Assembly (NCBI GenBank): GCA_951406725.2
Contig: OX597822.1
Coordinates: 49,042,001 to 49,106,000, forward strand
DNA from: Octopus vulgaris
Lineage: Eukaryota
Length of the DNA: 64,000 bases
Direction of reading: 5' to 3'
Position numbers and translations under genes: made by a program. Of the stretch, positions 539 through 61,052 are shown in pieces (position 1 is the stretch's first letter; each line of letters opens with the position of its first letter). The notes beneath the pieces are model-generated. The model saw only the letters and a list, made by a program, of their open reading frames with translations, was not told where the DNA came from and did not search any database.

Positions 539-932
539 GTACCTGAGCATTGATTCTTGTGAAAATCTAGTTCAATCGGGCAGTAAGAGAAGTGTCTACG
601 AAGTTAGACATTCGAAAATCAAGGTTTTGTGATTAAAAGCCTATGTAAGCCATCAACTCCAAAATTCATCTCGTTAGGTGCTACAAGTGTGAGTCGACAC
701 AGAATTTTCTATGAAACAGTTTCCTAATTCACAACTGTCAAGTGCTGACCCTGAGCATACCCTAAGAAACCAATATAAAGTTAATTAGTGTAGCCTTACT
801 ACAGGAGAATTAACACAAATAACAATTTAAAGTATGATTCGAGTAAATGTAATGGTTTTAAATCGATTAGTCATAGAATAGTTTTGAAAATGTAGGCGCA
901 GGAGTGGCTGTGTGGTAAGTAGCTTGCTAACC

Positions 933-2907
933 TCTGACGTGTCCGGACCCGTTTTTTTTGGCTGCTCCAGTTGTCACGTATTTTAACGTGGATTGTTGAA
1001 CTTTTGACTCGACTACAGGTGGGCGTTTTGTATTTTTGGGAGCTTAGTGAAGTTTATTGCTTGCATTTAATGTTTTTTAGCATTTAATAATTTTTAGCAG
1101 GTAATAAACTCCACTTTGCTCCAAACAATTTTTCCTGCCTGTAGTCACTTTGTAGTGAGTATTGTGTTTTTTTGAGGAGGTGTAGCCCCACCTCAAAAAG
1201 TAACGTGTGTAATTGCCTTTGTCTTCGGAGTTACCAACGGAGTACCAAGAATATTAACACAAGTGGATTACCAGTGGCCTGGAATACCTTTTTGGCCGGG
1301 AAAAAAGAAACAAAAAATTAATTCCTTTGCCTGGATTTTGAACTCACTTCTGCTATCTTTTATTTAAAAAAATCCTTTTTGAACTGCTGTTTCGAATTTT
1401 GTTTCTTCCCTTCTGTTCTGTTTTTTATTCTCCTTTTTTTTGTCTATTTTATTTTTATCACGTTGAACTGTTTTTTGAACTTTCGTTATGGCAAAGGAGT
1501 TCACCATATGGGAGTTGACACCTCCCAAAAGTTATCTGAAAGATCTAGAGGACAAGACCGTGGTTTTGAGGACTTATTCAAAGTCGCTCAACACCATAGC
1601 TGTCTTTCCAAAGGCCACTATTATTAACGAGCTGGCAGGCTATATGCCAGCCGTTAAATACATCGCACGGGGAGTCAAATACGCAACGGTTTGGTTGCTG
1701 TTTGACTCCCCTAAAGCAGCTTGCGACTTTGCAAGCAAGCCCATTGAGGGCAAGGAGATATTGTTCCTCCCTAATTACAAGGGACAAAAATTGCTGAGAG
1801 CTTGGATCTGCGGCTTACCACCCGGCGTTGAACCCGAGTGGATAGAGGACTCTATCCGCCGGGGTCTGGGTGGTAGCAGCGCCAAGCTCCTAAACGTAAG
1901 AGTACAGCCTGCGGCTGATTGGGAGGGGTCAAAAGCTATTTTGACCCTATGGACCCAATCAGCCAAAAGTCTGGTTTTGCTGGACTTCTTGAGGATGGCC
2001 GGGTAAGGTATCTGGTGATGCTTGAGGGACGCCCCCTCCCCCCCCAAGTGTCACCTGTGCCTGGAGACCGGCCATATTAAGAAAAACTGCCCCAGGGACC
2101 AAAGTAGGATCCTGGAGCAGTTGATATCGGAGCCTCTCCCTGCTCCCCAATGGAGGGAGAGAAACAGAGCGAGGAAGCAACGACTTCCTCAACGAGAAAG
2201 AGAAAAGTGGGGAGCAATGGCAACCCACCAAAAGACCTGGAAGCTGCGGGAGAAGAAGAGAACCCGGTGTGTGCAACACCGAAACCTCAACCTCCCGCGG
2301 CCCAAGGTAAAAAGAAGAAAAGGAAGAGGAGAAACGGGACGCCGCCGGCGGATTGTGATACGCAGACGGCGTCTCCCAAGTCTTCTCAGGCGGGTGTGCC
2401 GCCCGAGGAACAACTTGTAGAACAATTTGTGGTCCTCTCTTTTAAAGGTGGAACAGTGGAAGGTGAGATGAGGAAAATGAGAAAGCGGGGCCATTGGGAG
2501 GGACTTCGATCCTGCACGGAGGACCCCGAGTGGCCTTCGCAGCTGGCTGCGGAGGTCATGGGGAGGGGTAATCTGGGCAGGGTCACGCATTCCTTCCCGA
2601 TGGACTCATTTCAAATTATACCTCTAGACCACGACCTGACCAGCGATGATTGCCTCGTTGAGGCAAGAGCGCTGGTCGGCCGGGTAACATAGACTCATTG
2701 AACATTATATTGTATTGAAAAAGAAAATTTGAAATTCTTGTGAAATTTAAAAAAAAAAAAAGGAACAATGTCTTAGAGAAGCGAGGGTCGGCGGGCGCTC
2801 TTGGCTTCTCCCATCACCATCTTCGTCCATCACCATCATTCATTAATGTTTATTGTCCAGCCCGCAGCTACTCTTTGTACTGCCCTAGTGGCAAATCTTA
2901 TGAAATA
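933..2907 (+). mobile_element. ORF1-only non-autonomous non-LTR retrotransposon (Tx1/L1-like), element 1
   Basis: 16-bp TSD aagtagcttgctaacc (917-932 / 2908-2923). T-rich 5' UTR, one frameshifted ORF1 with a CCHC knuckle, and a 3' UTR ending in a hairpin plus aataaa. No RT or endonuclease. Confidence 0.88.
1488..2692 (+). pseudogene. Gag-like ORF1 with CX2CX4HX4C zinc knuckle, frameshifted
   Basis: ORF pieces 1488-2006, 2022-2420 (CHLCLETGHIKKNC) and 2150-2692 are collinear with the homologous ORF starting at 26415. Confidence 0.8.
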
Positions 2908-3050
2908 AAGTAGCTTGCTAACCAACCACATGGTTCCGGGTTCAGTCCCACTGCGTGGCATCTTGGGCAAGTGTCTTCTGCTATAGCCCCGGGCCGACCA
3001 ATGCCTTGTGAGTGGATTTGGTAGACGGAAACTGAAAAAAGCCTGTCGTA

Positions 3051-3097
<47 letters not shown>

Positions 3098-4269
3098 ATG
3101 TGTTTGTGTTTGTCCCCCCAACATCGCTTGACAACCAATGCTGGTGTGTTTACGTCCCCGTCACTTAGCGGTTCGGCAAAAGAGACCGATAGAATAAGTC
3201 CTGGGCTTACAAAGAATAAGTCCTGGGGTAGATTTGCTCGACTAAAGGCGGTGCTCCAACATGGCCGCAGTCAAATGACTGAAACAAGTAAAAGAGTAAA
3301 GAGTAAAGAGATTTGCATGAGACTTTGTTTTTTGGAATTTACACCTGGATGAATTTCCAAAAATCAAACACTTCGCTATATTTCAAATGGGTTTCTTTAA
3401 GAATAGTTTGTTTTTTTTGAAGTACTCCGTCGGTTACGACGAGGGTTCCGGTTGATCCGATCAACGAAACAGCCTGCTCGTGAAATTAACGTGTAAGATT
3501 GTTGTATTTATGCAAGGTAAGTTATCTAGGCACATGTCAGCCAGTTTAAGGCCCATTCCTTCTTAGCTTTAAGATCTGACTCTGTTGCAGCTGTCACTGA
3601 AAATCCAATATAAAACTGATTAGTATCTCGGCATGGGGGGATTGCAATTCATAATACAACCAACACACCGAACAAAAGTGAACCTCAAGAACCCCAACTA
3701 AAGTAAATATAATGGTTTTACATCGATTTGTTCATGTTAATATATTTAGAACAGTTCTGACAATTCAGATATTTCATGCCCGAAGTCTTTTTCAAACTCA
3801 AGCACTGAAACACACACAATTAGAAGATAGCGAAACACTCACCAGTATATGTTATTCTTGCTGTTTAAAGGGTCATATTGTATAGCCACATGATATCCGC
3901 GTATCAGAAATAGCTAGCTCAGAGGTAATGTAAGCGGAGTATCTTTATCCACGAAGGAGCAAAGTGTTTGATATAGAATATAATTCATTATCCACACCAT
4001 GAAAGAGATTAAAATTCTGTTTATTCGTCCAGGTACATTTTTCAATTCAGTAAATTTAGAAATGCTGTAAGAGATAGATAAATTCTGTTCCGGGTATAAT
4101 TATTTTAAGAGATGTTAGAGCGTGATGCTAACCTGAAGGTTTACTCTTTATTTCCACTCAGTTATTGAAATGTGGGTGTGATCGGCCACCAATTCTAAAA
4201 TTCATCCACAAAGAGCCTGTATGTGATCATTCCACCCACTAGAAATGGTAGCCAAATGTCTCTAGTGCT

Positions 4270-6675: not shown

Positions 6676-7090
6676 AGGCGGTAAGGTGGCGAGTTGGCAG
6701 AATCGTTACCCCGCCAGGCAAAATGCTTAGCGGCATTTCTTTCTGAGTTCAAATTTGGCCGAAGTCGAATTTTCCTTTCGGAGTCGATGGGATAAGTTCC
6801 AGCCGAGCACTGGGGTCGATGTAATCGTCAAGCTTCACTTCTCCCCAAAATTTAGGCCTTGTGCTCATAGTAGAAAGGATTATTACACAAGGTGGCAAGA
6901 TGGCAGAATTGTTAGTGCGTCGGATTAAATGCTTGACGGTATTTTTCCGACTGTTTACTTTCTGAATTCAAATACCACCGTGTTTGACTTTGCCTTTTAT
7001 CCTTTCAGAGTCGATAAAATAGTACCAATTTAGCACTGGTGTCGATGTAATCGACCTACCCCTCCCAAAAAATTGCTGTCCTTGTGCAAT
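6676..7090 (+). mobile_element. Two tandem SINE family B copies
   Basis: Head tggcagaatcgtta...gagttcaaat and body ggggtcgatgtaatcg each occur twice. Confidence 0.85.
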
Positions 7091-7094
7091 TAGG

Positions 7095-7404
7095 AATTTT
7101 TTCGATTAAAAATTACTTTTTAAGATAAGGGGAAAACCTATTATGAAAAGCCAGTGTCCAAGCAAAAAAGAAGAAACCATATTTGCATTCCCTGAAATGG
7201 CCATAAGGAATGTAAATATGGTTTCTTCTTTTTTGCTTGGACACTGGCTTTTCATAATAGGTTTTCCATTTATCTTAAAAAGTAATTTTTAATCGAAAAA
7301 ATTTCTAACCGATGAACTTTTATCTTTCCTTATATATCATATATATTATATATTTATATATAATATATAAGGAAAGATAAAAGTTCATCGATTAGAAATT
7401 TTTT
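7095..7404. repeat. Two overlapping long palindromes
   Basis: Arms 7095-7191 / 7207-7303 and about 7296-7336 / 7363-7404 are near-perfect reverse complements. Confidence 0.9.
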
Positions 7405-8389: not shown

Positions 8390-9151
8390 TATGTTTGACT
8401 TTTGCTTTATGTCTGTACAAGTTGGCTCCAAGTCTCACCCAGAGACCTCAAGAGACAACAGGTTGGAAGTTCACGTTGTTGTTATGCCTAGTGTGCCATA
8501 TATTTGGGGGGGTTTTTTGGTGTTGTACTAGTGAATGTCTAATACATAAAAAAATTTTTTTTAATGTTTGTTTTAAACCTTGGGATTACATAGAGAGTAT
8601 TTTGCGTAGGATATGAGCAGTTCCCATGAGCACTATCTTTTGAATTTCTGCCATTTTGGGGTTTCCTGGTATCTGAGTTAGGTAGCAATCATCCCCTTTC
8701 GCTATCATTCCCAGGGCACCTATGACAACATGTATTGTTTTAGTCTTCAGGTTCCACATTTTGCTGATTTCTATTTCAAGATCTTTATATTTGCTCAGTT
8801 TTTGGTAGGTCTTGACAGATACGTTTATATCGATTGGGACAGTCATATCAATGAGGAGGCATGTTCTTTGTCTGAAGTCTTTCAATATGATGTCTGGCCT
8901 ATTTGCATCTATCTTTCTGTCAGTTTGAATGGTGAAGTTCCAGAGGAGTGAGATGTGGTCATTTTCAAGCACTGGAGGTGGATTGTGTTCCCACCAGTTT
9001 TTTTCATGGGGCAAATCCAGGTTTTTGCAAATTACCCAGTGAATACATTGTGCAGCTCTATCATGCCTGTTGAGGTACTCTGTAGGCGCTAGAAGACTGC
9101 ATTTGGAGACAACATGATCAATGGTCTCGTTTTGTTGTCGGCATACACGAC
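8389..9151 (-). mobile_element. 5'-truncated REL-type non-LTR retrotransposon (R4/Dong-like): zinc finger, endonuclease and 3' UTR
   Basis: Minus strand reads RVCRQQNETIDHVVSKC..RHDR, RPDIIL..LIDMTVP..KLSKY, VIGALG. Flanked by (TAA)n. Confidence 0.9.
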
Positions 9152-9174
9152 TTATTATTATTATTATTATTATT

Positions 9175-9277
9175 GAGTGAGAGAGCAGTTCATGCCATCA
9201 AAGTGACACTGGGGTAAAATATACGAAGCCCAATATACCCATCATGACTACCCGCCTGATAAAGGTACACCAGGCAC
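9175..9277 (-). mobile_element. Truncated copy of the 7824-8299 element in (TAA)n
   Basis: Near-identical to 7824-7926, with TTA repeats on both sides. Confidence 0.75.
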
Positions 9278-9819: not shown

Positions 9820-10880
9820 TTATTGTTGATGTTGTTGTTGCTGTTGTTATTATGGTTATTATTTTTTTTATGGGTCTCTATCGTATTCCTGATATTTTTA
9901 TTATTATATTTATATTTATCTTTGTCTTTGGTAGTGTTACCTTCGTCCTAATTATTGGGGCTGGATGTAGTTGCTCTATTCTGGCTACTATAGTTAATAT
10001 TTCTTGATATTTAATTTTACATTTATATCCCGCATTTTTTAGTGTTATGTTATATTTTTCCTTGTGCTTATTAAAGATTTCTTCATTAGAAGATAGATTT
10101 GAAATTCTTTTACTTATATTCAATAGTAGCGCTTTTTTATTTGTAAGGGATGGTTACTTGAGCTGTTTATATATCTTAGTGTAGAGTTTTCTTTAGTATA
10201 AGGCTCAAGAAGTCCGGTATTTAAGTTACAATTTGCATCTCTTCTCTCTTCTACTCTTCTACTTGTTTCAGTCGTTTGACTGCGGCCATGCTGGAGCACC
10301 GCCTTTAATCGAGCAACTCGACCCCGGAACTTATTCTTTTTGTAAGCCCAGTACTTATTCTATCGGTCTCTTTTGCCGAACCGCTAAGTAACGGGGACAT
10401 AAACACACCAACATCGGTTGTCAAGCAATGCTAGGGGGACAAACACAGACACACAAACAAACACACATGCATATATATATACATATATACGACAGGCTTC
10501 TTTCAGTTTCTGTCTACCAAATCCACTCACAAGGCATTGGTCGGCCCGGGGCTATAGCAGAAGACACTTGCCCAAGATGCCACGCAGTGGGACTGAACCC
10601 GGTACCATGTGGTTGGTTAGCAAGCTACTTACCACACAGCCACTCCTGCGCCTAAATAGTTTATAGAATAGTTTTAATTTTCTATGGTTATGGCTAGGCC
10701 AAACCTATTAAAGAATTTATATAACCTCTTTTTTTAGCAGTTCTAGGCGTCTATTTGAACCGTTCTAAACTAAGAATAGTGCGTCATCCCTATATAGGCC
10801 TCCGGTTAATTCGGGGAATCCTCTACTTATGTTATCCAAGATGTATAGACCTACCAGGTCTGTATTTTTCTACTTGTGAA
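9421..10880 (-). pseudogene. Penelope-like element RT remnant interrupted by SINE-A and (TAA)n
   Basis: Minus strand reads GLYRDDALF (about 10800), YINSSSNHP (about 10165), ISKRISNLSSNEEIF and IRIGYS. Confidence 0.75.
10251..10652 (-). mobile_element. Full-length SINE family A
   Basis: Intact head, body and tail with an empty target site. Confidence 0.92.
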
Positions 10881-15005: not shown

Positions 15006-15237
15006 GGCGGCGAGCTGGCAGAGTCGTTAGCACGCCGGGCGAAATGCTTGGCGGTATTTCGTCTGCCACTACGTTCTGAGTTCAAATTCCGCCGAGGTTG
15101 ACTTTGCTTTTCATCCTTTCGGGGTCGATAAATTAAGTACCAGTTACGCACTGGGGTCGATGTAATCGACTTAATCTGTTTGTCTGTCCTTGTTTGTCCT
15201 CTCTATGTTTAACCCCTTGTGGGCAATAAAGAAATAA
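15006..15237 (+). mobile_element. Full-length SINE family B with the cccttgtggg-aataaagaaa tail
   Basis: A-box-like tggcagagtcg and B-box-like gagttcaaatt. The central gctttcatcctttcggggtcgataa domain resembles MetaSINE (inference). Confidence 0.9.
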
Positions 15238-16297
15238 GAATCGTTACCGCGACGGCATTTCGGCCCTCTTTGCGGCCTGACTTCAAATTCCACCGACTTT
15301 ACCTTTCATTCTCTCAGTGAATATGTGTGTACATACACCTATATACATGTGCGTATGTTTATGACTACCATTGCAAATCTATGCATCCATTTACTTAAAA
15401 AGGTAACTTAGCCATTCACTAAATATACATCGATAAATTATACTTGTTCGAAATAAGAACTGGCTTCGATGATGAATAAAAATACCCTTGAATATAATGC
15501 GCCATCATAGTGGTAAGCAAGTAAAAGAGTAATAAAGCAAAACAAGTAAGAGTGAAGAGAAAATTTATGGAATCTATTCGTTGTTAATCTATCTTTACTA
15601 TACATTAAAGTGTCTTATATTAACTAAATATGTCAATTCATTGTCTTATTCTATAATCAACACGTGAATGTTAAATATTTCCAAGAATATATCGATTTAT
15701 TAATTTGAGACAACGCCTCAAATTTATAGCACTTCACTTATATAAAACATGAATTAATTCCCGCAAGGGTTATTTTTTTTAAAGAATATTACAAATTAAC
15801 ATTAAAAATATTATTTTTAATGTATTTTTCTCTAATTACGTTAAACGCTGTTTGCACATACCTGAAATATAAATAGAAATTGGTGTTTACAGTCAATTAA
15901 TTTGCAACTTGTGCACTATAATTAATTATGTCATGCTATTTGCTCATAGCCTGAGGTTACATATAAGCTACAAAGCTTCTTATAAATGCTTCCACTCCTA
16001 CAGATTGTAGATGACAGAAAACTACTAGAAAATATATAGGAAGAATAACAAAAGATAAAAAAAGTCAAGTTAAAAATCAAGAAAACGAAGAAATAGGGAA
16101 TGGTCTGTTTGAACAACAATTTTTGAAGTTTATTCGTTGTGAAGATCGAAGAATCTAATGTTTAAGGTAATCTAGGACCATTCCTTTTCTTGAAGATAGA
16201 GAAATGTTAATTCTGGCAAGGATGATACTTCTTTAGGAGATTCTGGGGATGTCTTGCTGCACAGTCATACAAACATCACGACTTTTACTTTATTAGG

Positions 16298-16720
16298 GCG
16301 TACATCGCATCCGCTATCTACTACCGTCTGACCGTCGTGCCTTGCCCCGACGGACCGGTGAAATTGCTCGGGGTTTGGTTCAGTCCAGACCTCCAAATGG
16401 AGAAGAACTGGGATGAGATAATGAGCAGAGAGGTCAATCTCACCTGGCTAAGGGGCGAGAGGAAGCTATCTCTAAAAGGTCGGGCTGAGGTGGCGAATGC
16501 GTACATCGCATCCCTCATCTACTACCATGTGACCGTCGTGCTTTGTCCCGACCCTACCTTCACGAACCTGGAACGCATACCCTTCCGCTTTTCATGGAGG
16601 GTTAAGCGATTTATTTTCTGTCAACATCAGCTAAATGGAGGGCTGGATATGCCGTTGTTGATGATGCGCAGACATTCGCTGAGACTGCGACATCTCCAGC
16701 GCTTCATAGACGACGGTGAA
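16298..16720 (+). pseudogene. Fragment of Tx1/L1-clade ORF2 (RT C-terminal region)
   Basis: VKLLGVWF..NW..RKLSLKGRAEVANAYIAS..YY..FRFSW..GGLDMP is the typical L1/Tx1 post-RT pattern. The segment is a GC-rich island. Confidence 0.75.
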
Positions 16721-17001
16721 CATCCATCCATCTATCCATCCACCTGTGCAGATTATATAAACGTATAAATGGCAGTGCCCCAGCATGGCCACAGATCGTG
16801 AGCTGAAACTAGGTGAAATGATATGAAAATGAAATGAAATGTATATTCTAGACACCTGCTTCCGTTTATATTTATATATATCACCGTGATCAACGTGACC
16901 GACCAGACTATCAAATGTTGGTACACATCGCTGGTCACAATGCGCTACGCATTGTTTTAGCCTTCAAATGACGCCACCCCGCTGGCTAAACGAGCAGGCC
17001 A

Positions 17002-20734: not shown

Positions 20735-21915
20735 GGCATTATTCAGCTTTATTTCAAGATTTCTTGCTAACAGAGAAAGAGCCGGTTTCAACATCAAGAG
20801 AGGCTGCGCTTCATTTCAATTCTACTGCCTTCTTCAGGCTTCCGGGCAACATACCTATGCATGGCCTTTTTTTTGTATGCTGAGTGCTTTCAATCCAGGT
20901 CTTCTCTGAGGTAGGAGGGCACAGCTGTTTTGGGGCTGTATAGGAGATCATCAGGAAGAGGGTGTTTCTTGAGGAGTTCTCTGCCAACTCGTACAATGTT
21001 GTTCACTTCACTTTTCAGGATTGCATTAATATATTTATTTTTACTGCTGGTGTTTAGCAGGTGCTGCCTGAGTGATACCATGCGGCATTCGAAGGCCATC
21101 TGCAGTGATCTCAGGTCTCTACTACTTTCATTTCTTCTTAGGTAGAGCCTGTGAACATCACTGTTTCTGTGGAAGTTCCCAGTTGTCGTCAGGATTTTGC
21201 GGGTTTTGATATCTATGGAATAGATTTCCTCCAAAGACCAATCAAGTATGCCAACTGTTGGGATCAGTACTGGTACTACAAATGCATTGTGGGATATTGT
21301 TTTGTTGTAAGAGGAGTGTTCCGACTGCCATATTTTCTTAAGTCTGGTGTGATATTCTCGGGTCACTCTATCTTTATTGAGTGCCTTCATATGATACATT
21401 TTCGTCTACACCTAGGTACTTTTGTATCATTCTTGTCTGGAATGGGGGAGATAGAGAGACCATTGATGCATAGGATTGGGGTTTGGGGGAGTGACTTTCC
21501 TCGTTCTATAACCAAATATTAACATTTGTTTTGGCCAAATTCCATACCTGTATCATCTGAAAATGTTTTAAATTCCAGTTGCTTTTGGGCATTGTTTACA
21601 CTTTTAGTATAAAGCTTCAGGTCGTCTACAAAGAAATTATGAGTTACATTGATATTTCTGGCAGTTAACGATCTTAGCCTGTAACCATTTGTTTTCTGCA
21701 GTAAGAACGATAATGGAATCAGTGCCAAAATGAAAAGAAGTACAGAAAGTCTATCTCCCTGGAATATTCACTTTGTAATGCCTATACTATTAGAAATAAT
21801 TATTCTGTTCTCAGTTGTAAGAGTAAGAATAGTTGTCCATGTCTTTGTGACTCTCTGTATAGCCGCAATTAAAGTAGTAGGTACCTTTGCCAGATGTAGG
21901 CACTTCAACAGCCAC
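20735..21915 (-). pseudogene. REL-clade non-LTR RT fragment joined to a short 3' tail
   Basis: IFQGD, HNFFVDDLKLY, GMEFGQNKC, IDIKTRKILT and RLYLRR, with stops and frameshifts. Confidence 0.8.
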
Positions 21916-24363: not shown

Positions 24364-25840
24364 TATCCTTTTGCTGCAATAGACAGATTAAACTTGATAT
24401 CACAAGAGACAAGGGCGGAAATATATTGATGTGTTATTTGGATTGGCATGTACAATAAATGGAGTTGTATGGCTCTTGTAAAGGAGACGCTCCAATACAC
24501 ATACAAGGAAAAAATAAAGAAATACATAACAACAAAAACAAAAACAACTATTTACGATCCTTGAAATGATTGTTTCCACATCACCGACAGTCATGACTGC
24601 TATCAAATGTCGGATGAGTTTTCCTGTTAAATAAACTGATGGCAAAGGACGTCAAAGGGGAAAGAAGAAAATGGAAAAAAAAGAAAGAAAAAAGAACGAG
24701 GAGAGAAATAATAAATAATCAATGAATTAAAGTGAAACGGGAAAAGAAGAGAACTGGAAGACCAAGGACTCGAAGAAGAAGAAGAAGGCGAAAAGAAGAG
24801 AGAAAGATGAGGGAGAGGACGAAGAAGATACGGGGAAGGAAGTGAAGATGAAAGAGGAGAAGACAAGGAAGGGTATGATGATGATGAGAAAAGTGGAAAC
24901 CATGACATTAAAAGGCTGGCTTAATCTAAAATGGCAGCTCATCTATTTGTGTTTTGTTTGTAATTTAATCTGTTCTCTGGCTGTGCTAATGCATACTGTT
25001 AACAGTATAAATAGCTGACTGAAGAAGTGTCTAAGAACGAATTACTCATCACAATTTGTCTTTTTTCTCTTATGTCACATTTGTGAAATCACAAGCGATA
25101 AATAAGAAGACATTTCTCGGAATGAAGTGTATTTCTTTTGAAAAATTAATTTGTTGGAGTAGCAGGAGCAACTATCGTGACTTTTGCAGGTGTCCTGTTC
25201 TAAATTAGCGTGACTGAAGTGACTGATGTCCCATTCCATTCCAACGGCTCTATGTCTGTAAAAAAAGAGAAGCGAATAAATAAACGTGGGAGGAAATTTT
25301 GCGGGTTGCAATTTTGGAAAAGAATGATTAAACAAAGTATTAATGTCGGATTCAGTGGATGAGAGAAAAGAAGAGAAGCAAACATATCAGACAACACAAA
25401 GTGAAAGTGCTGTGCACCTTTCTAGAACTATAGTTGCGCTGTAACAGATGTCTATCCGTACCAATCCCCTTTATATCTGGACGCAATGTTGTTATATTCT
25501 ATCCCATGTATTATATCAGCTTTTGAAGAGACAAAGGGGTGAAACATATTTGTGAGCTAGAGGCAGCAGCATGTTGCTCAGGGAATTTTTGCTAATCAAC
25601 CGAATGGTCTTTATTTTTAAAATAGAGTTCAGGAAATATTTATACTCCTCATTAGCGCTATAAAAGGTACATGGGCAATATTCTTGTGGCAGCGTTTCAT
25701 GCTTTAATATGTTATAAATATTGTAGCGACTTGACTGTGACACGAACTTGTTGCGTCTCGCTTTGCTTGACGGTTGAAACTTTTTCTTATTAATTTATCA
25801 CCAGGCGCAGGAGTGGCTGTGTGGAAAGCAGCTCGCTTAC

Positions 25841-27870
25841 GCGCATGCGTTAGTTAGTTTTACTTCTGCACTGGTGTTGCCAACACATTGCTTTGCAGCG
25901 GTCTTGAATTGAAGAACTGTGAAGGCGCAACTATAAGGTAAGACGTTTGGATTTTGTGGGGATTCAGTGGGGGTTTGTTGTTTGATGTCCATTTTTTTGT
26001 CGAACAAGAAATCCTCACTAGATTCCGGGGCATTTGTCTGCCAAAAGTTGCGCCAAGTGTCTCACTTAACTGTGAGAAGAGTGCTGTTTTGGGAGCGTAT
26101 TCCGCCTCCAAAAATTGTGAAATTTTTGTGAAAAAATTTTCTGAATTTTTGCTAATTTGTGGTGGTTTTTGTTTGAAGCCGTGTTCCTGCTGCTGTGTCC
26201 CTTTTCACTTTTGGAGTAACTTTGGAGTACCTTTTGGCCAGGAGTACCGGTTGACTGAAATTGTGTGTTGCCGTCTTTGAACTGTCTTCCTTCTTTCTTT
26301 TTTCTCTTCTTTGTCTTTCTGCTCTTCTTTGTCTTCCTTCGAACTGTTTTTTGACTTTGTTTGGACTTTTGTTGTTTCTTGTTTGAACTGTTTCCTGAAC
26401 CTTTTCTTCAAAGCATGGCGAAGAAATTGAACACTGTATTGGAGTGGGAAATGATTCCACCCAAGCAATGGCTAAAAAGCTTAGAGGAAAGAACGGTGGT
26501 GTTGAGGACTTTTTCTAAGTCACTCAACACTACCGCTGTCTTTCCTAAAACAGATATAGAAAAAGAGTTGGCAGAGAATCTGCCAACTATTAAGTTTATT
26601 TCCAGGGGTGCCAAATATGCAACGGTGTGGTTGCTATTTGACACCTCTGAGGTCACTCCTTAGAAGAGCAAAAGATTCTGTTTTTTCCCCACATATTGTG
26701 GGAAGAAATCAATAAGAGCTTGGGTCTGTGGGCTGCCACCGAGCATTGAACCGGAATGGATAGCAGACACTATCCGCTGGGGTCTGGGTGGCAGCGGGCC
26801 CAAGCTTTTAAATGTGAAATTGTTGCCTGCGGCTGATTGGATAGGGTCAAAAACGTTTTTGATCCTATGGACCCAATCAGCTGCTAAAAATCTTGTATTT
26901 CCAGATTTTTTGAAAATGGCCGGTTGCAGGTACCCAGTGATACTTGAGGAACGCTCCCAAGTGTCACCTGTGCCTGGACTTGGGTCATATTAAGAAGAAC
27001 TGTCCCCAGGACCAAAGTAGGGGCCTGGAGCAGTTAGTAAAAGTAACTCCCCCTCCTCCTTCAGAAGGAGAGAGATGGAGGCAGCCGAGGAGGAGACCTC
27101 CTCGAAAATAGGGGAAAAAAGGAAGAAGGTGGACAGCAATGGTTGCCCTCCGAAGGACCCTAAAGCTGCGGGAGGGAGGGAAGATCCTCCGGATAAAGCA
27201 AAATAACTACACCCTCCCGTAGCACAAGGGAGAAGAAGAAAAAAAGAAGAATGGGACATTGCCGGCGGTTAATAGTACACTGCCGGCATGTCCTGAAACC
27301 TCGTCGGTGGGAATTGTGCCACGGACGGAGGAAACCGTGCCCCCTCCCGTTATGATGAAGGATGATTTTGTGATCTTCTTTCATAAGGGAGTGGTTGTAC
27401 AGAGCTTTTTGAAGAAGCTAGAGGGCCAGAGGGAAGGGGTCCTGTCCTGTACTGAAGACCCGGATTAGCCTTCGCAGGTAACTGCGAAGGTCATAGTGGA
27501 AAATGATATGTTCAGGTGATGGACTCCTTTCCCAGGGGCCAATGCAGTTTTGCATTCTGGAGCACCGACTTAGAACAGCAGGATTGCCTGCGGGTGGCAA
27601 GTTGCCTGATCGGGGAGGGAAGGTAAGAGGCCTTAGTGTCTCGATTTGAAAGTTGACTTTGTTTTTTTTTGGTAAGAGGCTCTGCGCCTCATCTTGTAAG
27701 GACGATTGCATCCATTCTTTGAACTTTGGTAAGAGGTTCAATACCTCATTTTGTGTTGATGAGAAAAAGAGAACAATGTTTTCGGGAAGCAGTAATCGGC
27801 GGGCATTGTCTGCTTCCCCCACCAACCATCTTTTCATCTTTGTAAGGCTGTATGGCCAATTTATGAAATA
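25841..27870 (+). mobile_element. ORF1-only non-LTR element 2, same family as element 1
   Basis: TSD aagcagctcgcttac (25826-25840) / aagtagcttgcttac (27871-27885). ORF1 from ATG 26415 (RTVVLRTFSKSLNTTAVFPK; CHLCLDLGHIKKNC). Same 3' end atgaaataaa. Confidence 0.87.
26415..27600 (+). pseudogene. Decayed gag-like ORF1 with CCHC knuckle
   Basis: Collinear with 1488-2692, with several stops and frameshifts. The 3' limit is approximate. Confidence 0.75.
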
Positions 27871-27888
27871 AAGTAGCTTGCTTACCAA

Positions 27889-29671
27889 GTATCTTGCTTC
27901 CGCTTCCGTTGGCGTATGGGTGTTGATTTTTTTGTCGTCGAAAGAGTGAGTTGTTACCGTTGTTTTATTGTTGTACGTTGAATTGTTATATTGTTGTAAT
28001 TTATTTGGATCAGTTGGACTGTTGTATTACTGAACTGTTGGCCTGTTGTGAGAAGGCTCTTCCCCAGTCATGGGTGAAGGTGCAAGGAGTAGTTATGCGT
28101 CGGCTGTGATTAAAAGTACACCAACCAGCAAGTTCGGGAAATTGTGGTAGAAGAAAGTAAGTGGAAAGACGCAAGAAAGTTGGTGAAGAAGGATGGAGAG
28201 GGTCTTTTGCTGACATCCCCAGTGGAAGTTAGTAAAAAGGTTGAATAGAGAACTGTCGTCGACAGAATGTGGTCGACAGTCCCGAAGAAATTGAGGTAGC
28301 TTCGATAGAGGAGATTGAAGAATGTTTAAAGGAGGTGAAGGAGTACACCACCTTCTATACCAGAAGAAGAAAATTCGTCACAGTGGAGGTTAGGTTCGCT
28401 AGCGAGGAGTTAGCGATAAACCACTCCACTGTGCCAATTATAACCAAGCTGTGGACCTTACTACCAAGTTATTGTGGGAGAAGCGTGTCCAGAATCAAGA
28501 TTGGAAGGGTGCCTCCTGAAATAGAGGAGGCATGATTGGTGGCAGCGGTGATGGAAAATATGGAAGATGAAGTAAAAGTATTGAAAATAACAAAAACGGA
28601 GGAAATCAACTGATGGGAATAAGGGCTGGAGCTCACGGTTCTAGTTGGCCTAACGGAGATGCATGAGATTGCAGAAGAGGTGAGATTACTGGATGAGAAT
28701 AATGAGAATAATGGGGGAAAGGAGACCTACATGCTATCAATGCGGTAAAAAATGTCATTTAAGGGCTGTTTGCCCAAAGAATGAAGAGGGGAAGGTGGAA
28801 GTAGTAGAACAGAAGGAAGAAACCCCAATAGTAATGGAGCAGGCAATGGAGGAGGATTGTACTGTGGCGAAGAGGAGGAAGAACAGTGGAGACTCACCTC
28901 CAAAGAGTGTGAGAAAGAAGAGAAGAGGTGGGAAAAAGAAAAAACCGAATAAGCCAGAAAATGGCGACAAGAAGGAAAAATATGTGGAAATGTGTGAACG
29001 GAGAACGCTATTCAGAAGTTATAGTGGAGACTATACGGAGGGTGGAGAAAGAGGGTGGAGAAAATTCGATGACTGTAGTGTGTGAAAGACGGGAAGGGGA
29101 GGAATTTGAATTGACGGACGACGAGGATGAAGTGATGAACGAGAGTGAACTGGAGCGAAGGAGAACTAGTTTTGGAAGGAATATTCGGAATTTGATAATT
29201 TACAAGAAAAGTGTGGAAACTGAGGAAAAAGTCGAGAAAATGAAGAACATAATAAGAGTAAAATTGATAGGCAATGATAATTTTAGAGCTATTTTATTAG
29301 AAAGAGATAGAGGTGAAAGATTCCAGACATTGTTTGCAAGAAAAATGATAGTCATCAAGCGGCAGGTTCGAGATGACGAGCCGCCGCCGGTGGTGGGATA
29401 CGAAGAATTAAAACCGTACTGGTGGAATATAAAGGACTCATTATGAACTAAAGTTATTTGTGAGAAATTTTTTATTTTAAAAAGACTGCTAATTGTTGTA
29501 TAAATAGTAAAAGTGGAACCGCCTGCATGTGGGGAGTGGTTAAGCCACTTCATTTTCATTTCCATCAATTCATGTAATTCATTCGTGTATGTTTTATGTA
29601 TCCCCTGTTTTGTTCTTTTATGTTTTTATATCGCCCCCTCTGTGTTTGAGCCCTTGTGGCTAATAAAGAAA
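27889..29671 (+). mobile_element. ORF1-only non-LTR element 3, a distinct family
   Basis: Flanked by aagtagcttgcttaccaa (27871-27888) and gtaagttgcttgcttaccaa (29672-29691). ORF1 contains CYQCGKKCHLRAVC. Tail is gcccttgtggctaataaagaaa. Confidence 0.83.
28269..29446 (+). pseudogene. Decayed gag-like ORF1 with CCHC knuckle and Lys/Glu-rich region
   Basis: ORF pieces 28269-28535, 28693-29085 and 28928-29446. GRVPPEIEEA parallels GLPPGVEPEW in element 1. Confidence 0.72.
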
Positions 29672-30951
29672 GTAAGTTGCTTGCTTACCAACCACGTTGT
29701 TCTGGGTTCAGTCCCACTGCATGGCACTTTGTCTATTCTGCATTCTGTTTATTCTGCACATATTCCAGCAAGCTTTGGTTGGCACCAACATTTATTGATG
29801 CCGACATTATCGCTTTCATTAACTCCGATTTCTACCATATTCTACATTTTCTTGATATATTTCCAACAGGACCCTTTGAAGGAATTGAAAACATTCATTC
29901 AGGTTCAGACTTTGGGTGGTCCACACATGCACGTACACTCACACACATCCTTCCTTTCGACTAATCTACAGACATGATAGCTCATAGCTACCCTCTCCCT
30001 TTTGGAAAGCAAACTCTATCCTTTAGTTTTACACATATGAAGGGACAATTTATAATCCAGAACCTTATCACACCAGACTTACATTGACACTTCACTGTAT
30101 TTGAAAAGGGTTTTGCGACAATCACCAAATGAGGAATGTCAAAACATTTTTTCAGCAAAATACATACATACTTTAATCATTGGATTTCAGTCATGCTGGG
30201 GCGTCCCCTTTAATTGTTTTAGTCAATCATACTGATCTTAATGTGTATTTCAGTCGGGTGCTTATTTTATTAATTTCAATTTATCGCATACATGTCGATT
30301 TAAAAGGATGCAACTCGGTGCACCAATTTACACTAGTTTATACAAGCATAGACACCCAGATTCTGTCAACGAAATCCCGCTCACGAAGCATTGGTCAATC
30401 TAATGATACAGTAGAAGATACCTATCCTACGTCATGCACAACCGCAAGTCACGTGGTTCCGAAGCGAACTTCTCTGCCACAGTGTTGCGTCAACTAAAAT
30501 TTATAAATATAATTATAGAATAACAAAAAGTATTTATAATAATATAAAAATGTCAATATTTATTGACGTTGTAGTTGATGCAACTTATTTCTTTCAAAGA
30601 TATCTCACACATACAGCAGAACTGATTTATGGGTGAGATCATGTGAGTAATTAACAATCATATACATCGAAAAAAGAAAATAAATGGTTGTAACAAATGG
30701 TTGTACTAAAAACTGGTCTCGGTCCAAAATTTCTGGGCGCATGTAAAACAAGATAAATGTTCTTTTTTTAAAACATAATGCTTATTTTCTAAAAAATTCT
30801 TATCGAATAAAAATAATGTTAACCATTCCTGGCATTTTTTAATTCAAACGTCCAAGTAATTTTCATTCATCACATTTAGATTATCGTCATTAAAAATAAT
30901 AATCCTCATAGCAACAAATTACTATATCTCTCTCACACATACACACACACA

Positions 30952-37974: not shown

Positions 37975-38370
37975 GGCAGGAGTGACTGTGTGGTAAAGTA
38001 GCTTGCTAACCAACCACATGGTTGCGGGTTCAGTCCCACTGGGTGGCATCTTGGGCAAGTGTCTTCTGCTATAGCCCCGGACCGACCAATGCCTTGTGAG
38101 TGGATTTGGTAGACGGAAACTGAAAGAAGCCTGTCATATATATGTATATATATATATGTATGTGTGTGATTGTGTGTCTGTGTTTGTCCCCTAGCATTGC
38201 TTGACAACCGATGCTGGTGTGTTTACGTCCCCGTCACTTAGCGGTTCGGCAAAAGGGACCGATAGAATAAGTTCTGGGCTTACAAAGAATAAGTCCCGGG
38301 GTCTATTTGCTCGACTAAAGTCGGTGCTCCAGCATGGCCGCAGTTAAATGACTGAAACAAGTAAAAGAGT
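37975..38370 (+). mobile_element. SINE family A with empty target site
   Basis: Full head, body and tail. Confidence 0.9.
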
Positions 38371-38387
38371 ATATATATATATATATA

Positions 38388-39626
38388 TAAGGTTGTTTCT
38401 CATGAAATGTCGCATTTTTAATTACTTCTTACTTCAGTCATTTAAAAACCCTATTATGTATACTTTGCATTTAATCTTGAATCTTTTTCTTTCCTAACAA
38501 TATTAGTATACAAAATTCGTACCCACATGACAGACCTTATGAAAATGATAACCAAACAATGTTGAGTGGTTTTCTCGTATGAGTACAAACTGGGTCACTC
38601 TGCCCCAGAAGCTCTATGGAATATCAAAGCAGGCCTTTGGTAATGATTTTGTTGGCATCAGAACTATTCAGAGACGGTTCCAAAGCTCTCGTTCAGGAGA
38701 TGATAGCCTTGAAAATAAATCAAGGGGTAGGCCAAAATCAGTTATTGTGCATGATGGATTAAATGCTTTGGTCGTACAAAATCCGAGAACAAATGTTCGA
38801 AAACTTTCATCAGAACTCCAAACATCTCGCACAACTGTTTTTGGACACTTGTAAAAAACTGGAAAAGTCAAGAAAACTGATAGGTTTTTTTCCGCATCAA
38901 CTAAGCGAGATTAAAAAAAAAAAAAGATGCCTCGAAGTGTGCTCCTTATTGCTTTCTCGACTGGTAAAAGACCATTTTTGCATCAAATCATTAATTGTGA
39001 TGAGAAATGGATTCTCTTTGACAACAGCAGGAGGACAGGACAGGACAGAAATTAAATGCAGGAGAGTCACCTAAACACTACCCAAACCCACCATTGCATT
39101 CTAAACAGTTAGTGGTCACTGTATGGTGGTCTGCGAAGAGAGTTATTCATTATTCATTTCTGCAACAAGGAAAAACGGTAGCAGCAACATCGTATTGCCA
39201 GGAAATTGATTGTATGCATTAGAATTACAAAAAAGAAGCAACCCAGATTAGCGAATAGAGATGGGCCAATTTTACTCCACGACAATGCACATCCTCACAC
39301 TCCTCAAGCAACGGTCCAAAAATTGCGAAGCCTGAAATATGAGATTTTGCAACATCCTCTCTGTTCCCCTGATATCTCTCCTACTGATCATCTCTTATTT
39401 AAGCATTTTGAGCTTTTCATAAGCAATAACGCATTCTTAGATAGAAGAGGTAATTGAAGCATTCGGACAGTTTATCAAAGCAAAAGATGAATTTTTTTTT
39501 AAAGATGGAATATTCGACATAGGGAAACATTGGGTAAACGTCATAAATGAACATGGATCATACTTTGATTCAATAAATTAAGTTCTCTAACATGTCTGAA
39601 GTACAACATTTCTTGTGAAACAACCT

Positions 39627-39628
<2 letters not shown>
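38388..39628 (+). mobile_element. mariner transposon with decayed transposase
   Basis: TIRs taaggttgtttctcatgaaatgt / acatttcttgtgaaacaacctaa in (TA)n. Motifs TVWW, LLHDNAHPH and CSPDISPTD, with stops and frameshifts. Confidence 0.92.
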
Positions 39629-39657
<29 letters not shown>

Positions 39658-41500: not shown

Positions 41501-41741
41501 TCAGACGAAAGTTGCTGGTATATACAGACACTAAGACACATACAAACGTTATTGCCACTTATACAAACTGAGAGGTTGTATTTATGAGAGAGTGTCGGGG
41601 TATGTGTATATGAACGCATCCTAAGCATTCATAAGCGTGTCTGTGTGTGTATGAGTACACGTAGATATGAAGTTTTTCTGACTATGTTACCATGTTCCTT
41701 ACTTCGTATGTGTAGCGGTATGTCCTGTTACCATTAATTTA

Positions 41742-41910
41742 TAAAAGAGAAAAAGAACAATGTTTTCGGGAAGCATCGATCGGCGGGCGCCGTCTGCTTC
41801 CCTCATCAATATCATTATTTTGCTCATCATTCATTTCGTTTGTGTTGTTGTCCAGCCCGCATTTGCCTCTTATCTATGTAATGCCTTTATGGCAAATTTG
41901 ATGAAATAAA
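41742..41910 (+). mobile_element. 3'-end fragment of the element 1/2 family
   Basis: agaacaatgttttcgggaagca...ctgcttccc...gtccagcccgc...tgcctttatggca...atgaaataaa matches 2760-2907 and 27770-27870. Confidence 0.8.
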
Positions 41911-42730
41911 GAAGCTTGTACTACACACGCGCGCACGCATACACAAACACACGGACACACACACACATGCACACAAACAAGGCAATTTAGAAATTCGTTT
42001 AAACTTTAATATATACTATAATTTTTTATTTATTGATACAATTTTTTTTTCTTTTGTTTATATTTCTAATATTATTTTTGCTATTTTGTCGTGAATCTCT
42101 TTTGATATATATAAATACATTTTGCTATTTTGTGGTGAATCTCTTTGATATATATATATATATACATATGATGGCCATCCATTCGTGACTCTACTATTCT
42201 CACTAAAAATACCAAAGAGTGAATGAAATTACATCCCGAATTCTACTCATTCCAAATGATATACTCTTTCAATTTAGACGACCTCAGTTTTCAAAATATT
42301 TAAACGTTGCTGTGTCAATAAAAAAATTCCATTGACAGTTATGGACTGCATCTTGAGAAATATTGTTCTGCTCATGGTCAATTTTGTGTAGGAAGCTCAA
42401 GAGTTGAAAGCCCATTTAATCTTTTTATTTATGTCCCCTATTAGTAGAACGTTTTGTATACTGAGAGATAACTTCCCAGCTTATATGATACCAGAGCTGG
42501 TATCATTGCAACTCTTTATATCATTACCGAAGAATACTTTACCGAAGAATAATTATATTTATGAGTGGTTTACTTCTTCACAAGAGAAATCCATTAGTGG
42601 TCTTTGAAATAGATGTGCCTTCATTAAGAACCTAAAGAACATTAAAAATCCCAGACCAGCAAAAATAAAAAAAATAGAAAAATAAAAAACGGTATCTTTC
42701 AGACAAACCTATTATAATATGATGTTTTAA

Positions 42731-51402: not shown

Positions 51403-51710
51403 ATGTATTTCTAAACTAAGAGTGGTAACTCTCTTATCTACTTGACTGTTGCTTTAAATATCAGGAATCTTTGAAATCCCTTGTGTCTGTGGTATAGTTT
51501 CTTAGTTTAGAAATTAAAGTTTAAGTCTTCAGTCCTGTACTGCGTAGGTATCCAAATACAGCTCGAAAAGCTTTAATCGTAGTAACTGTGACTTCTTTTA
51601 GATATTTAATGACATCGGGTTGATATTGATCAGATTACAGTGTTAGTGACGTATAGTGATAATGGAGCAATCGTTGGCTTCGACCATGAGCATTCCGTTG
51701 TTCTATCAAC
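51403..51710. repeat. Left copy of a 308-bp direct duplication flanking the RTE element
   Basis: Matches 52420-52727, with two mismatches seen. Confidence 0.92.
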
Positions 51711-52419
51711 AGCGCGTTTGGGAGACTGCGCAAGAAAGTCTGGGAGCGGAGAGGAATCAGCCTCAACACCAAGCTGAAAGTCTACCGGGTAGTCGTGCTT
51801 ACCACCCTACTATACGGCTGCGAGACGTGGACTGCTTACCGAAGGCACGAGCGCCAGATAAACCACTTCCATCTCAGGTGTCTTCGGAACCTCCTTCACA
51901 TCCGCTGGCAGGACAAAGTCCCAGACACGGAAGTTCTGAAGCAGGCAGATCTCCCTAGCACCATCACAATCATGCGCAAGGCCCAGCTGAGATGGGCGGG
52001 CCACGTCTCCCGCATGTCCGTCACTCGCATCCCAAAACAGCTCTTCTACGGTGAACTCGGCCAGGGCAGGCGCAAAGTCGGAGGGCAGAAGAAGCGCTAC
52101 AAGAATAGTCTCAAGGTCTCTCTCAAATACTTCTCCATCGGAACAGAGACCTGAGAGACACTTGCTGCCAACCGCTCATCCTGGCGCAGCGCAACCACCG
52201 TGGGAGCAGGGACGGATTCGGTCAGCGGAGCAGAAACGTCAGATGCGTAAAGCCAGAGCCGCCTGCACCAGTAGCACGGCCCCTACCCACTTCTGCCCCA
52301 CCTGTGGGAGGGGCTTCCTTGCCCGGATTGGCCTCACCAGCCACCTCCGGTCTCATGGCGGAAGTTCCATCAGATGATGTCAGTTGGTCATCTTTGAACC
52401 GAAGGACGAACATAATCTA
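51711..52419 (+). mobile_element. 5'-truncated RTE-clade LINE
   Basis: SAFGRL..TLLYGCETW..QLRWAGHVSRM..PKQLFYGEL, and C-terminal CPTCGRGF..GLTSHLRSH. Confidence 0.92.
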
Positions 52420-52727
52420 ATGTATTTCTAAACTAAGAGTGGTAACTCTCTTATCTACTTGACTGTTGCTTTAAATATCAGGAATCTTTGAAATCCCTTG
52501 TGTCAGTGGTATAGTTTCTTAGTTTAGAAATTAAAGTTTAAGTCTTCAGTCCTGTACTGCGTAGGTATCCAAATGCAGCTCGAAAAGCTTTAATCGTAGT
52601 AACTGTGACTTCTTTTAGATATTTAATGACATCGGGTTGATATTGATCAGATTACAGTGTTAGTGACGTATAGTGATAATGGAGCAATCGTTGGCTTCGA
52701 CCATGAGCATTCCGTTGTTCTATCAAC
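52420..52727. repeat. Right copy of the 308-bp direct duplication
   Basis: Matches 51403-51710. Confidence 0.92.
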
Positions 52728-53019: not shown

Positions 53020-53418
53020 TATTGATTTCAAATTTGGGTACAAGGCCAACGATTTCCTGGGAGGGGGAAGTCGATTGCATCGATCTCAGTGATCAACTGG
53101 TACTTATTTTATCAACCCGAAAGGATGAAAGGCAAAGTCAACTTCGGAGGAATTTGGATTCAGAACGTAAAGACGAAAGAAATACCTATTTATTTACTAC
53201 CCACAAGGGGCTAAACACAGAGAGGACAAACAAGGACAGACAAACGGATTAAGTCGATTATATCGACCTTAATGCGTAACTGGTACTTATTTAATCGACC
53301 CCGTAAGGATGAAAGGCAAAGTCGACTCGGCGGAATTTGAACTCAGAACGAAGCGGCAGACGAAATACCGCTAAGCATTTCGCCCGGCGTGCTAACGTTT
53401 CTGCCAGCTTGCCACCTT
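53020..53418 (-). mobile_element. Two tandem or nested SINE family B copies with different tails
   Basis: The full copy 53187-53418 runs directly into a headless copy at 53020-53186. Confidence 0.85.
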
Positions 53419-54544: not shown

Positions 54545-54775
54545 ACCTGCTAGCTGGCAGAAACGTTAGCACGCCGGGCGAAATGCGTAGCCGTATTTCG
54601 TCTGCTGTTACGTTCTGAGTTCAAATTCCGCCGAGGTCGACTTTGCCTTTCATCCTTTCGGGGTCGATAAATTAAGTACCAACTACGCACTGGGGTCGAT
54701 GTAATCGACTTAATCCGTGTGTCTGCCTTTGTTTGTCCCCTCTGTGTTTAGCCCCTTGTGGGTAGTAAAGAAAAA
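54545..54775 (+). mobile_element. SINE family B
   Basis: Near-identical to 15006-15237. Confidence 0.88.
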
Positions 54776-55235
54776 AAATATATATTAACCATATTTCCCG
54801 CTCTTCAAACTACGTTCTATTGCCTTTCAAGAAGGAAAAACATATCTTATACTGTAGTCCTACATACTTCCTCTAAGCAATTTTGTCTTGCTTGCGTTTC
54901 TTTTTATCACAGATCTCGGTTATGGCTGACTTGTGTTTAAACAACGTGAACAGTAACAAGGACAACAACAAAGGTAGTAACAATGACAAAAACAAAATTA
55001 ACTACACCAAAAAACAGCATCAACTCTACGTCCAGAAACTAATGAAGAAAATACAAGTCCAATAATTTCAGTATTTTCTAGATTTTACTTATTTATTATT
55101 TGCAAAACAGATTGTTGATTAGGGGAGTACAGGAAATGAGGAACATAGGGAAGGAGGCGGCACGCCGAATCTAAAAATTCGAACAGATGTACTGAGTTTA
55201 TTTTTCTCTCTCATGTGAATCCTAAAGCATACGTG

Positions 55236-60791: not shown

Positions 60792-61010
60792 TATAAATAT
60801 AAAAATAAATTAAAAAGGAAGTTGAAAATGGTAAAAGAGGAAGAACAGTGTTCTATATAAGAAGGTAAAGAGGAAGAACACAGTAGTATAAAGGATAACA
60901 TTAAATGAAAATCTTGATTCTTCTGTTCCGGTGACATTCATTGCTCTTCTCTGCTTGTCTCCACAGGTAACAATGACGTCGTCGTCGTTGTCGTCAACAT
61001 TATCATCGTC

Positions 61011-61052
<42 letters not shown>

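Follow-up and report, generated by a model that had tools for sequence, protein, structure and literature searches.

Non-autonomous LINEs that keep ORF1 alone have been described before, with HeT-A (Jockey), HAL1 (L1) and Ag-Sponge (CR1) being the cases named in PMC5786205. For HAL1, several independent origins are reported (PMC5753468), and in the guinea pig its ORF1 was kept for long periods (PMC3627910). Target-specific LINEs are the other systems that come close, and families of the Tx1 clade are described as often targeting other repeats, giving 16-bp duplications and tandem copies (PMC4494074).

The stretch of Octopus vulgaris DNA analysed here, 64,000 nucleotides in length and called the window below, contains three ORF1-only units, elements 1 to 3 (E1 to E3), and a fragment, E4. 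As in HAL1, HeT-A and Ag-Sponge, an ORF1p-type protein is encoded by element 1 and no ORF2 lies between ORF1 and the 3' end. The likeness to HAL1 extends to the retention of both ends, the ORF2p of HAL1 being supplied in trans (PMC3627910, PMC5753468). Unlike HAL1, the octopus element has an ORF1 predicted to be of type I (two RRMs and a CCHC knuckle) and not Transposase_22 (coiled coil, one RRM and CTD), no poly(A), a strict shared target and a mollusc host. A poly(A) tail is a hallmark of L1, and HAL1 proper was ruled out since neither Transposase_22 nor poly(A) was found. HeT-A is likewise ORF1-only, targeted and arranged in tandem arrays (PMC5537684), but it extends chromosome ends, its 3' UTR is long and it carries an A tail, whereas the octopus element is internal, sits inside a SINE and carries a 16-bp duplication; these internal insertions with duplications exclude membership in HeT-A. 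The CR1-derived Ag-Sponge shares the character of an ORF1-only non-autonomous LINE (PMC5786205).

Among the Tx1 systems, Tx1L, Keno and Tx1-Mar with SINEU-3 also combine a multicopy-element target with duplications of about 16 bp and tandem copies, and they include non-autonomous riders with a common target (PMC4494074). However, the Tx1 targets reported in the part of the literature consulted are DNA transposons, LTR elements, snRNA genes, 5S genes and microsatellites, whereas the octopus target is a SINE head, and the reported riders are non-coding SINEU, whereas the octopus unit codes for ORF1 and offers no RT by which to place it in a clade. Dada DNA transposons insert at fixed tRNA-gene sites, several of them within the A box (PMC8869645). 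They have a DDE transposase and 6-7-bp duplications, in contrast to the RRM-CCHC gene and 16-bp duplications of the octopus element, and membership in Dada was rejected on these grounds.

The reading preferred here, with a probability of about 0.6, is that element 1 represents an ORF1-only LINE in its full length, non-autonomous and mobilised in trans by a partner with sequence specificity, probably Tx1. ORF1-only LINEs as such are already known. In a search of the openly accessible literature, neither a cephalopod ORF1-only element nor one directed at a SINE head was encountered; the octopus families may already be catalogued in Repbase, Dfam or the O. vulgaris repeat library on Zenodo.

Layout of the ORF1-only elements

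Element 1 (933-2907, 1,975 nt) is a complete unit between perfect 16-bp target duplications (Table 1). An earlier note had described it as a full-length ORF1-only unit rather than a truncated LINE, with both ends present, an ORF1 stop at 2690-2692, an AATAAA near the end, no ORF2 and a second element of the same layout. This description was largely borne out. A TAG is found at the given stop, 215 nt before the right duplication, exact repeats bound the unit on both sides, and the longest stop-free run in the 215-nt 3' UTR is 63 codons on either strand, consistent with the absence of ORF2. The AATAAA signal exists at 2904-2909, but two of its six bases lie inside the duplication and no poly(A) follows; none is present at the junctions of element 1. 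Element 2 has the same layout and a similar length (2,029 nt) despite clear divergence, as seen in a whole-length alignment. The 5' UTRs of the two elements are collinear from positions +18 and +16 after the left duplication to the ATG (0 of 500 dinucleotide shuffles reached the score; 3 of 500 for the first 200 nt alone), which argues that both are complete and rules out a simple 5' truncation of element 1. A gag-only LTR element was ruled out as well because a blastn search of 933-2907 against the window gave no repeat between the two ends. Splice-donor-like motifs occur at matching places in the two 5' UTRs (1016-1024 and 25935-25943).

Three frameshifts interrupt the ORF1 of element 1 (near 2004, at 2042-2051 and at 2130-2150), two of them situated in C-runs, and no in-frame stop is left in its 400 codons once these breaks are set aside, while the ORF1 of element 2 has four frame breaks and four stops. 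Neither can make ORF1p now. In the spacer of element 1, a 14-nt near-copy of the terminal motif is followed by an A-run (2733-2761).

Element 3 is a distant relative, about 30% identical to element 1 over the best-matching stretch, with three frameshifts and four stops in the aligned part of its ORF1. The degenerate target copy at its 5' end resembles an older SINE-A variant and was possibly carried along from the donor locus. Directly after E4, 10 target-like nucleotides are found; no duplication was detected at this fragment and no SINE head upstream of it.

Table 1. Positions within the window of elements 1 to 3, fragment E4 and the SINE-A sequences that host them.
Feature	Position	Strand	Remarks
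Host SINE-A of element 1, 5' part of tRNA-like head with A-box-like motif	894-916	+	aligns to five empty copies
Left target site duplication, element 1	917-932	+	exact match to 2908-2923; present once in empty SINE-A copies
Element 1 5' UTR, T-rich, 555 nt	933-1487	+	collinear with element 2 5' UTR (0/500 shuffles)
Element 1 ORF1, about 400 codons	1488-2692	+	RRM1-RRM2, CCHC knuckle, basic linker, C-terminal region (predicted)
Element 1 spacer after stop, A/T-rich	2693-2775	+	weakly similar to repeat unit 2 of element 2 spacer
Element 1 3' UTR stem-loop	2776-2810	+	common to element 2 and fragment E4
Element 1 terminal module	2881-2907	+	3-4-bp hairpin, then GAAATA end; no poly(A)
Right target site duplication, element 1	2908-2923	+	exact match to 917-932
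Rest of host SINE-A with B-box-like motif	2924-3310	+	3' limit read from sequence
Second SINE-A head and decayed left duplication	25803-25841	+	duplication 25826-25841, 13/16 matches
Element 2, ORF1-only unit, 2,029 nt	25842-27870	+	ATG 26415, stop 27624-27626, 244-nt 3' UTR
Duplication between elements 2 and 3	27871-27886	+	followed at 27887-27901 by a degenerate second copy of the target
Element 3, distant ORF1-only unit	27902-29673	+	ATG about 28070, stop 29444-29446, 227-nt 3' UTR
Element 3 right duplication and truncated rest of second SINE-A	29674-29726	+	duplication 29674-29689
E4, 5'-truncated 3' end of element 1/2 family, about 170 nt	41736-41918	+	blastn E 1.5e-19; 0/500 shuffles

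A common target in the SINE-A head

The duplicated 16-mer is part of the head of a repeat, SINE-A, and occurs singly in all five empty copies of the window, at 10657(-), 37976(+), 64000(-), 32299(-) and 37689(+). At up to three mismatches, the 16-mer of element 1 has eight matches in the window against 0.32 expected, a number reached in none of 100 shuffles, and its remaining matches are SINE copies. Of 164 positions compared between the SINE-A that hosts element 1 and the empty copy at 10657, 161 agree. The A-box-like motif of the head lies at position 12 and the target bond follows position 23, just behind the A box and ahead of the B box. ARAGORN scored the head as a tRNA only at a relaxed threshold and reported no tRNA at default settings. 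Octopus tRNA-derived SINEs are cited in PMC4758252 and could not be matched to SINE-A. In the empty copy at 37976(+), one extra A lies exactly at the target bond (37993-37997).

A profile search finds three ORF1 copies in the window, E1, E2 and E3, and all three sit at the same SINE-A bond. Two of the seven SINE-A copies are filled, one being split by element 1 and another holding elements 2 and 3, so the targeting is read from two independent loci. A random insertion would fall within 1 nt of one of the seven target bonds with a probability of 1.6e-4, a value for a site defined post hoc. The duplications carry the subfamily base of their host, TAACC at locus 1 and TTACC at locus 2; they are therefore derived from the target, and the two loci represent separate insertions. 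A single composite of SINE and ORF spreading as one unit was considered and rejected, since the inserts have a dS above 1 while their hosts match in 69 of 75 positions and the duplications follow the host subfamily. This nucleotide-precise shared target in a SINE promoter, which the earlier note does not mention, is a stronger feature than the ORF1-only layout.

The ORF1 protein and its relatives

The predicted protein of element 1 has two RRMs (1488-2040) and a CCHC knuckle (2049-2090), the latter placed C-terminal to the two RRM folds in Pfam scans. The zf-CCHC match has an E-value of 0.0031, below the curated Pfam cut-off, and the full-length unit gives almost no Pfam signal. Since there is also no RT, annotation based on RT or Pfam domains would miss such elements. 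Pfam was scanned 20 times with ORFs from the window and with their relatives, and Transposase_22 was never matched.

A profile search with the first 172 ORF1 residues against 1.84 billion representatives returned 15 matches, from which P0002 and P0004 were dropped as repeat-driven. Of the 13 remaining relatives, eight are proteins of Octopus sinensis, O. vulgaris or O. bimaculoides and five come from short contigs. The closest, P0001, is the annotated O. sinensis gene LOC115225585 with three RefSeq protein accessions; it is identical to element 1 in 177 of 273 aligned residues and to element 2 in 195 of 272. Its structural model (mean pLDDT 71.6) shows two beta-alpha-beta-beta-alpha-beta domains and had 96 Foldseek matches at E<=0.001, with RRM proteins in all of the rows listed; the best single-domain structure match reached Z 8.8 (rmsd 2.6, 81 aligned). 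Atlas neighbours of ORF1 are CCHC proteins and a cluster with the ZCCHC3 RNA-binding domain (scores 0.90-0.92). The RRM-RRM-CCHC order fits the type I ORF1p as defined in PMC5203782, and on the basis of these profile and structural predictions, the ORF1 of element 1 is classed as a type I LINE ORF1p. The C-terminal part of about 90 residues had no Atlas match and an uninformative model (pLDDT 38.6).

Element 3 is 40% identical to P0013 of O. vulgaris (111 of 275 residues) and 34% to P0015 (96 of 285). Its profile match (iE 1.2e-42) was obtained with a profile that included part of E3 itself. Its C-terminus does not align to the C-terminal regions of elements 1 and 2, nor does its 5' UTR to theirs, and an apparent C-terminal likeness between E3 and P0015 did not hold. 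In the tree, E1, E2 and P0001 form a clade with support of 100/99 on a branch of 1.58. P0006 (O. sinensis XP_029639579.1) begins with about 38 residues of an element-1-family ORF1 start that precede a K02A2.6-like region. This gene model is probably chimeric and a further family member; it was excluded from alignment A2 and from the tree, and P0009 was excluded from the tree.

Further searches added little. Among 93 candidates of similar length, only P0001 was found as a relative, and none of E1 to E3, which are all broken, nor P0001, which ends at 281 aa, provides an intact full-length ORF1. A prokaryotic genome scan gave 601 pattern matches, none of them confirmed, and a PDB sequence search with the ORF1 profile gave only six chance rows.

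The annotation of P0001 as a gene, together with ZCCHC3-like domains listed by the Atlas at a score of 0.90, could also suggest that a site-specific RT produced the elements as retrocopies from an RRM-CCHC gene family of the host, or a domesticated one, with selection having acted on the source genes. This is very improbable: there is no poly(A), the 3' hairpin and exact end are conserved in three copies, the many relatives are highly diverged, often truncated and confined to Octopus records, and in P0001 itself the knuckle is broken and the protein stops short.

Selection on ORF1 and the presumed loss of ORF2

The earlier note had further proposed a long-lived non-autonomous lineage that kept ORF1 under selection, provided its RNA-binding protein in cis and borrowed RT in trans. 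The part concerning selection stood, with a dN/dS of 0.27-0.35 between the ORF1s of elements 1 and 2, which is not near 1. Nei-Gojobori on 376 codon pairs gave a dS of 1.21, a dN of 0.33 and a dN/dS of 0.275 (95% bootstrap 0.19-0.37), and GY94 gave 0.35 (p 2.8e-13 against 1). By region, dN/dS is 0.20-0.25 in the RRM-knuckle part, 0.25-0.39 in the linker and 0.50-0.60 in the C-terminal 84 codons, where selection is not significant by GY94 (omega 0.60, p 0.13). An alignment made from nucleotides only agrees with this, as 44, 33 and 85 of 192 codons differ at positions 1, 2 and 3 in the RRM-knuckle part (p 2e-9), and overall 176 of 384 third positions differ compared to 112 of 385 and 107 of 383 for the other two. 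The sequence comparison thus supports purifying selection on ORF1 between the two elements. A pairwise dN/dS cannot date this selection, which may have operated either in lineages already devoid of ORF2 or in a pair of autonomous parents.

Relative to the nearest empty copy, the host SINE of element 1 has changes in 3 of 164 bases (about 2%) and that of element 2 in 5 of 69 (about 7%). Compared to a dS of about 1.1-1.2 between the elements, this indicates that most of the divergence predates insertion. Retroelement lineages need not follow the host substitution rate.

The most likely source of elements 1 and 2 is a single ancestor that already lacked ORF2, although one loss is only suggested. 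Their stop codons align codon for codon, and they share the hairpin and the end. The three elements have 215, 244 and 227 nt after the stop, and no ORF2-like leftover was recognised in these 3' UTRs. Between the stop and the shared 3' block, the spacers measure 64 nt in element 1 and 137 nt in element 2, and as a whole they do not align (164 of 500 shuffles score as high). The 3' UTR of element 2 begins after the stop with three degenerate repeats of 49-57 nt, each opening with the 9-mer that spans its stop (0 of 20,000 shuffles). This threefold repeat can explain the length gap between the spacers without different breakpoints. A splice-donor-like motif starts each of the repeats (27622, 27671 and 27728). 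The spacer of element 1 resembles unit 2, with 0-16 of 1,000 shuffles scoring as high under most settings and 40-123 when the local gap costs were stiff; among 6,721 background windows, 170 reached the score. At the sequence level, a shared stop-to-tail junction is suggestive at most.

Alternatively, elements 1, 2 and 3 could each have arisen by an internal deletion of their own from different autonomous SINE-targeting LINEs. The low dN/dS would then record selection in the autonomous parents, which fits the inability of a pairwise value to place selection in time, and the ORF1-only units would be short-lived. The repeated origin of HAL1, the distance of E3 with its non-aligning 5' UTR and C-terminus, and the weak homology of the spacers are in line with such a history. 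Nevertheless, the lack of a recognised ORF2 leftover in the three 3' UTRs and the common stop position, hairpin and end of E1 and E2 speak against it. In addition, no longer or ORF2-fused relative appeared among the 15 profile matches or in two protein searches, which were weak, one of them also missing P0006, P0013 and P0015, known from the profile search. Repeated deletion is therefore judged unlikely, though it has to be reckoned with, and descent of elements 1 and 2 from a common ORF2-less ancestor is preferred.

The 3' end and the putative partner

A stem-loop of 14 pairs is common to E1, E2 and E4, with 38 of 42 cells paired and five pairs changed on both sides (8 of 500 shuffles, a count that is not a probability and comes from only three related sequences). 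Its folding z is -0.9 in element 1 and -2.0 and -2.3 in the other two. These three copies end in GAAATA. The terminal hairpin is found in E1, E2 (with its register shifted by one), E3 and E4 as well as in three tails of a second SINE, SINE-B; 20 of 21 cells are paired, and 13 of 500 shuffles did as well, in a set of only seven related sequences. The last 37 nt of E3 match SINE-B tails at 81-86% (E 4e-6 to 2e-3). SINE-B copies with an element-3-like tail lie at 15198-15260, 53160-53405(-) and 54550-54776, and in two of the three, sequence resembling the SINE-B head follows immediately, as though they had landed in a further copy of that SINE. Rfam gave low-complexity and hairpin matches only, all below the gathering scores.

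The AATAAA-like signal at the end and, in the 3' block of E2 and E4, a short frame that opens with ATG could mean that transcription of an autonomous element ended prematurely and gave the ORF1-only RNA, the apparent 3' UTR being the spacer between ORF1 and ORF2. However, this frame stops after two codons in E1, and we take it to be nothing like an endonuclease start. No poly(A) is present, and the terminal module also closes E4 and SINE-B, which marks it as a true 3' end. Premature termination is scarcely credible in view of these observations.

For a full-length unit moved in trans, the following course can be proposed. The RNA would be transcribed by Pol II from the 5' UTR, which presumably holds an internal Pol II promoter; a T-run lies at 952-960, and T-runs in this region would stop read-through by Pol III. 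ORF1p would coat its own RNA, and the 3' hairpin module would recruit ORF2p from an autonomous LINE, a partner that most likely belongs to the Tx1 clade. The partner endonuclease would nick the SINE-A head at GGT/AAGTAG, the RNA ending in A would pair with the nicked strand for target-primed reverse transcription, and a second nick 16 nt away would create the 16-bp duplication. Since the duplication regenerates the target, copies can stack in tandem, as E2 and E3 may have done. Each insertion moves the A and B boxes about 2 kb apart, which should silence the SINE copy concerned.

No autonomous partner sharing the element ends was found in the 64-kb window. Judging from the type of ORF1 and the target habit, the partner is most likely Tx1. 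A type I ORF1 (RRM and CCHC), which is not unique to Tx1, is predicted here, and a target preference with long duplications is seen in all three copies, at one bond and in two independent loci. For O. vulgaris, 80 L1-Tx1 families are reported, of which 13 were recently active and account for 421 insertions over 2.29 Mb (PMC13282606). Another possibility is that the partner belongs to the L2, CR1 or I group, has a type I ORF1, ends in a stem-loop and also moves SINE-B, SINE targeting being achieved by that enzyme or by tethering to Pol III factors. The absence of poly(A), the terminal hairpin common to SINE-B tails and the mostly arthropod CCHC proteins among the Atlas neighbours would suit such a partner. 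L2 and CR1 usually leave short or no duplications. Jockey-superfamily elements are described as carrying every ORF1 type, while RRM/CCHC ORF1s in non-mammalian animals are called consistent with Tx1 in the same source (PMC5203782), and the fixed 16-bp duplication at one bond fits the sequence-specific Tx1 elements (PMC4494074). A partner outside Tx1 is accordingly considered improbable, and a Tx1 partner remains the preferred candidate.

Other repeats in the window

A fragment at 16226-16768 with an internal duplication of about 50 nt and no Pfam support looks, in our assumption, like the post-RT part of an L1/Tx1 ORF2; a PDB sequence search with the ORF2-like fragment 16352-16714 returned nothing. 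The sequences at 60977-62227(+), 8586-9197(-) and 20890-21405(-) are presumably R4/Dong-like fragments of restriction-like-endonuclease LINEs. The first has a zf-RVT match (E 9.7e-6), and the first two adjoin (AAT)n runs. We take 51650-52420 to be a 3' fragment of an RTE-like ORF2. A decayed element with inverted ends in TA runs (38370-39646) is presumably mariner-like, and a long near-perfect, MITE-like inverted repeat (7083-7301) gave the top Rfam match, which is sub-threshold.

Implications

A more far-reaching interpretation, which is tentative and as a whole rather unlikely, is that of an old Octopus guild of ORF1-only LINE parasites that was already ORF2-less before the split between E1/E2 and E3, whose RRM regions are only about 30% identical, and that has kept one nucleotide-precise target in the promoter of an abundant tRNA-derived SINE. 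If true, LINE parasites would put SINE copies out of action by inserting into them, and another SINE family would share their 3' module, giving a four-party system around one RT. With a mollusc element of fixed target, a fourth setting would join Jockey, L1 and CR1 (PMC5786205). The need for ORF1p in cis, by way of selection on ORF2-less branches, and the inheritance of a partner's target by a rider would both become testable in one genome. By having a SINE promoter as its target, LINE machinery would, in addition, be able to thin out SINE copies.
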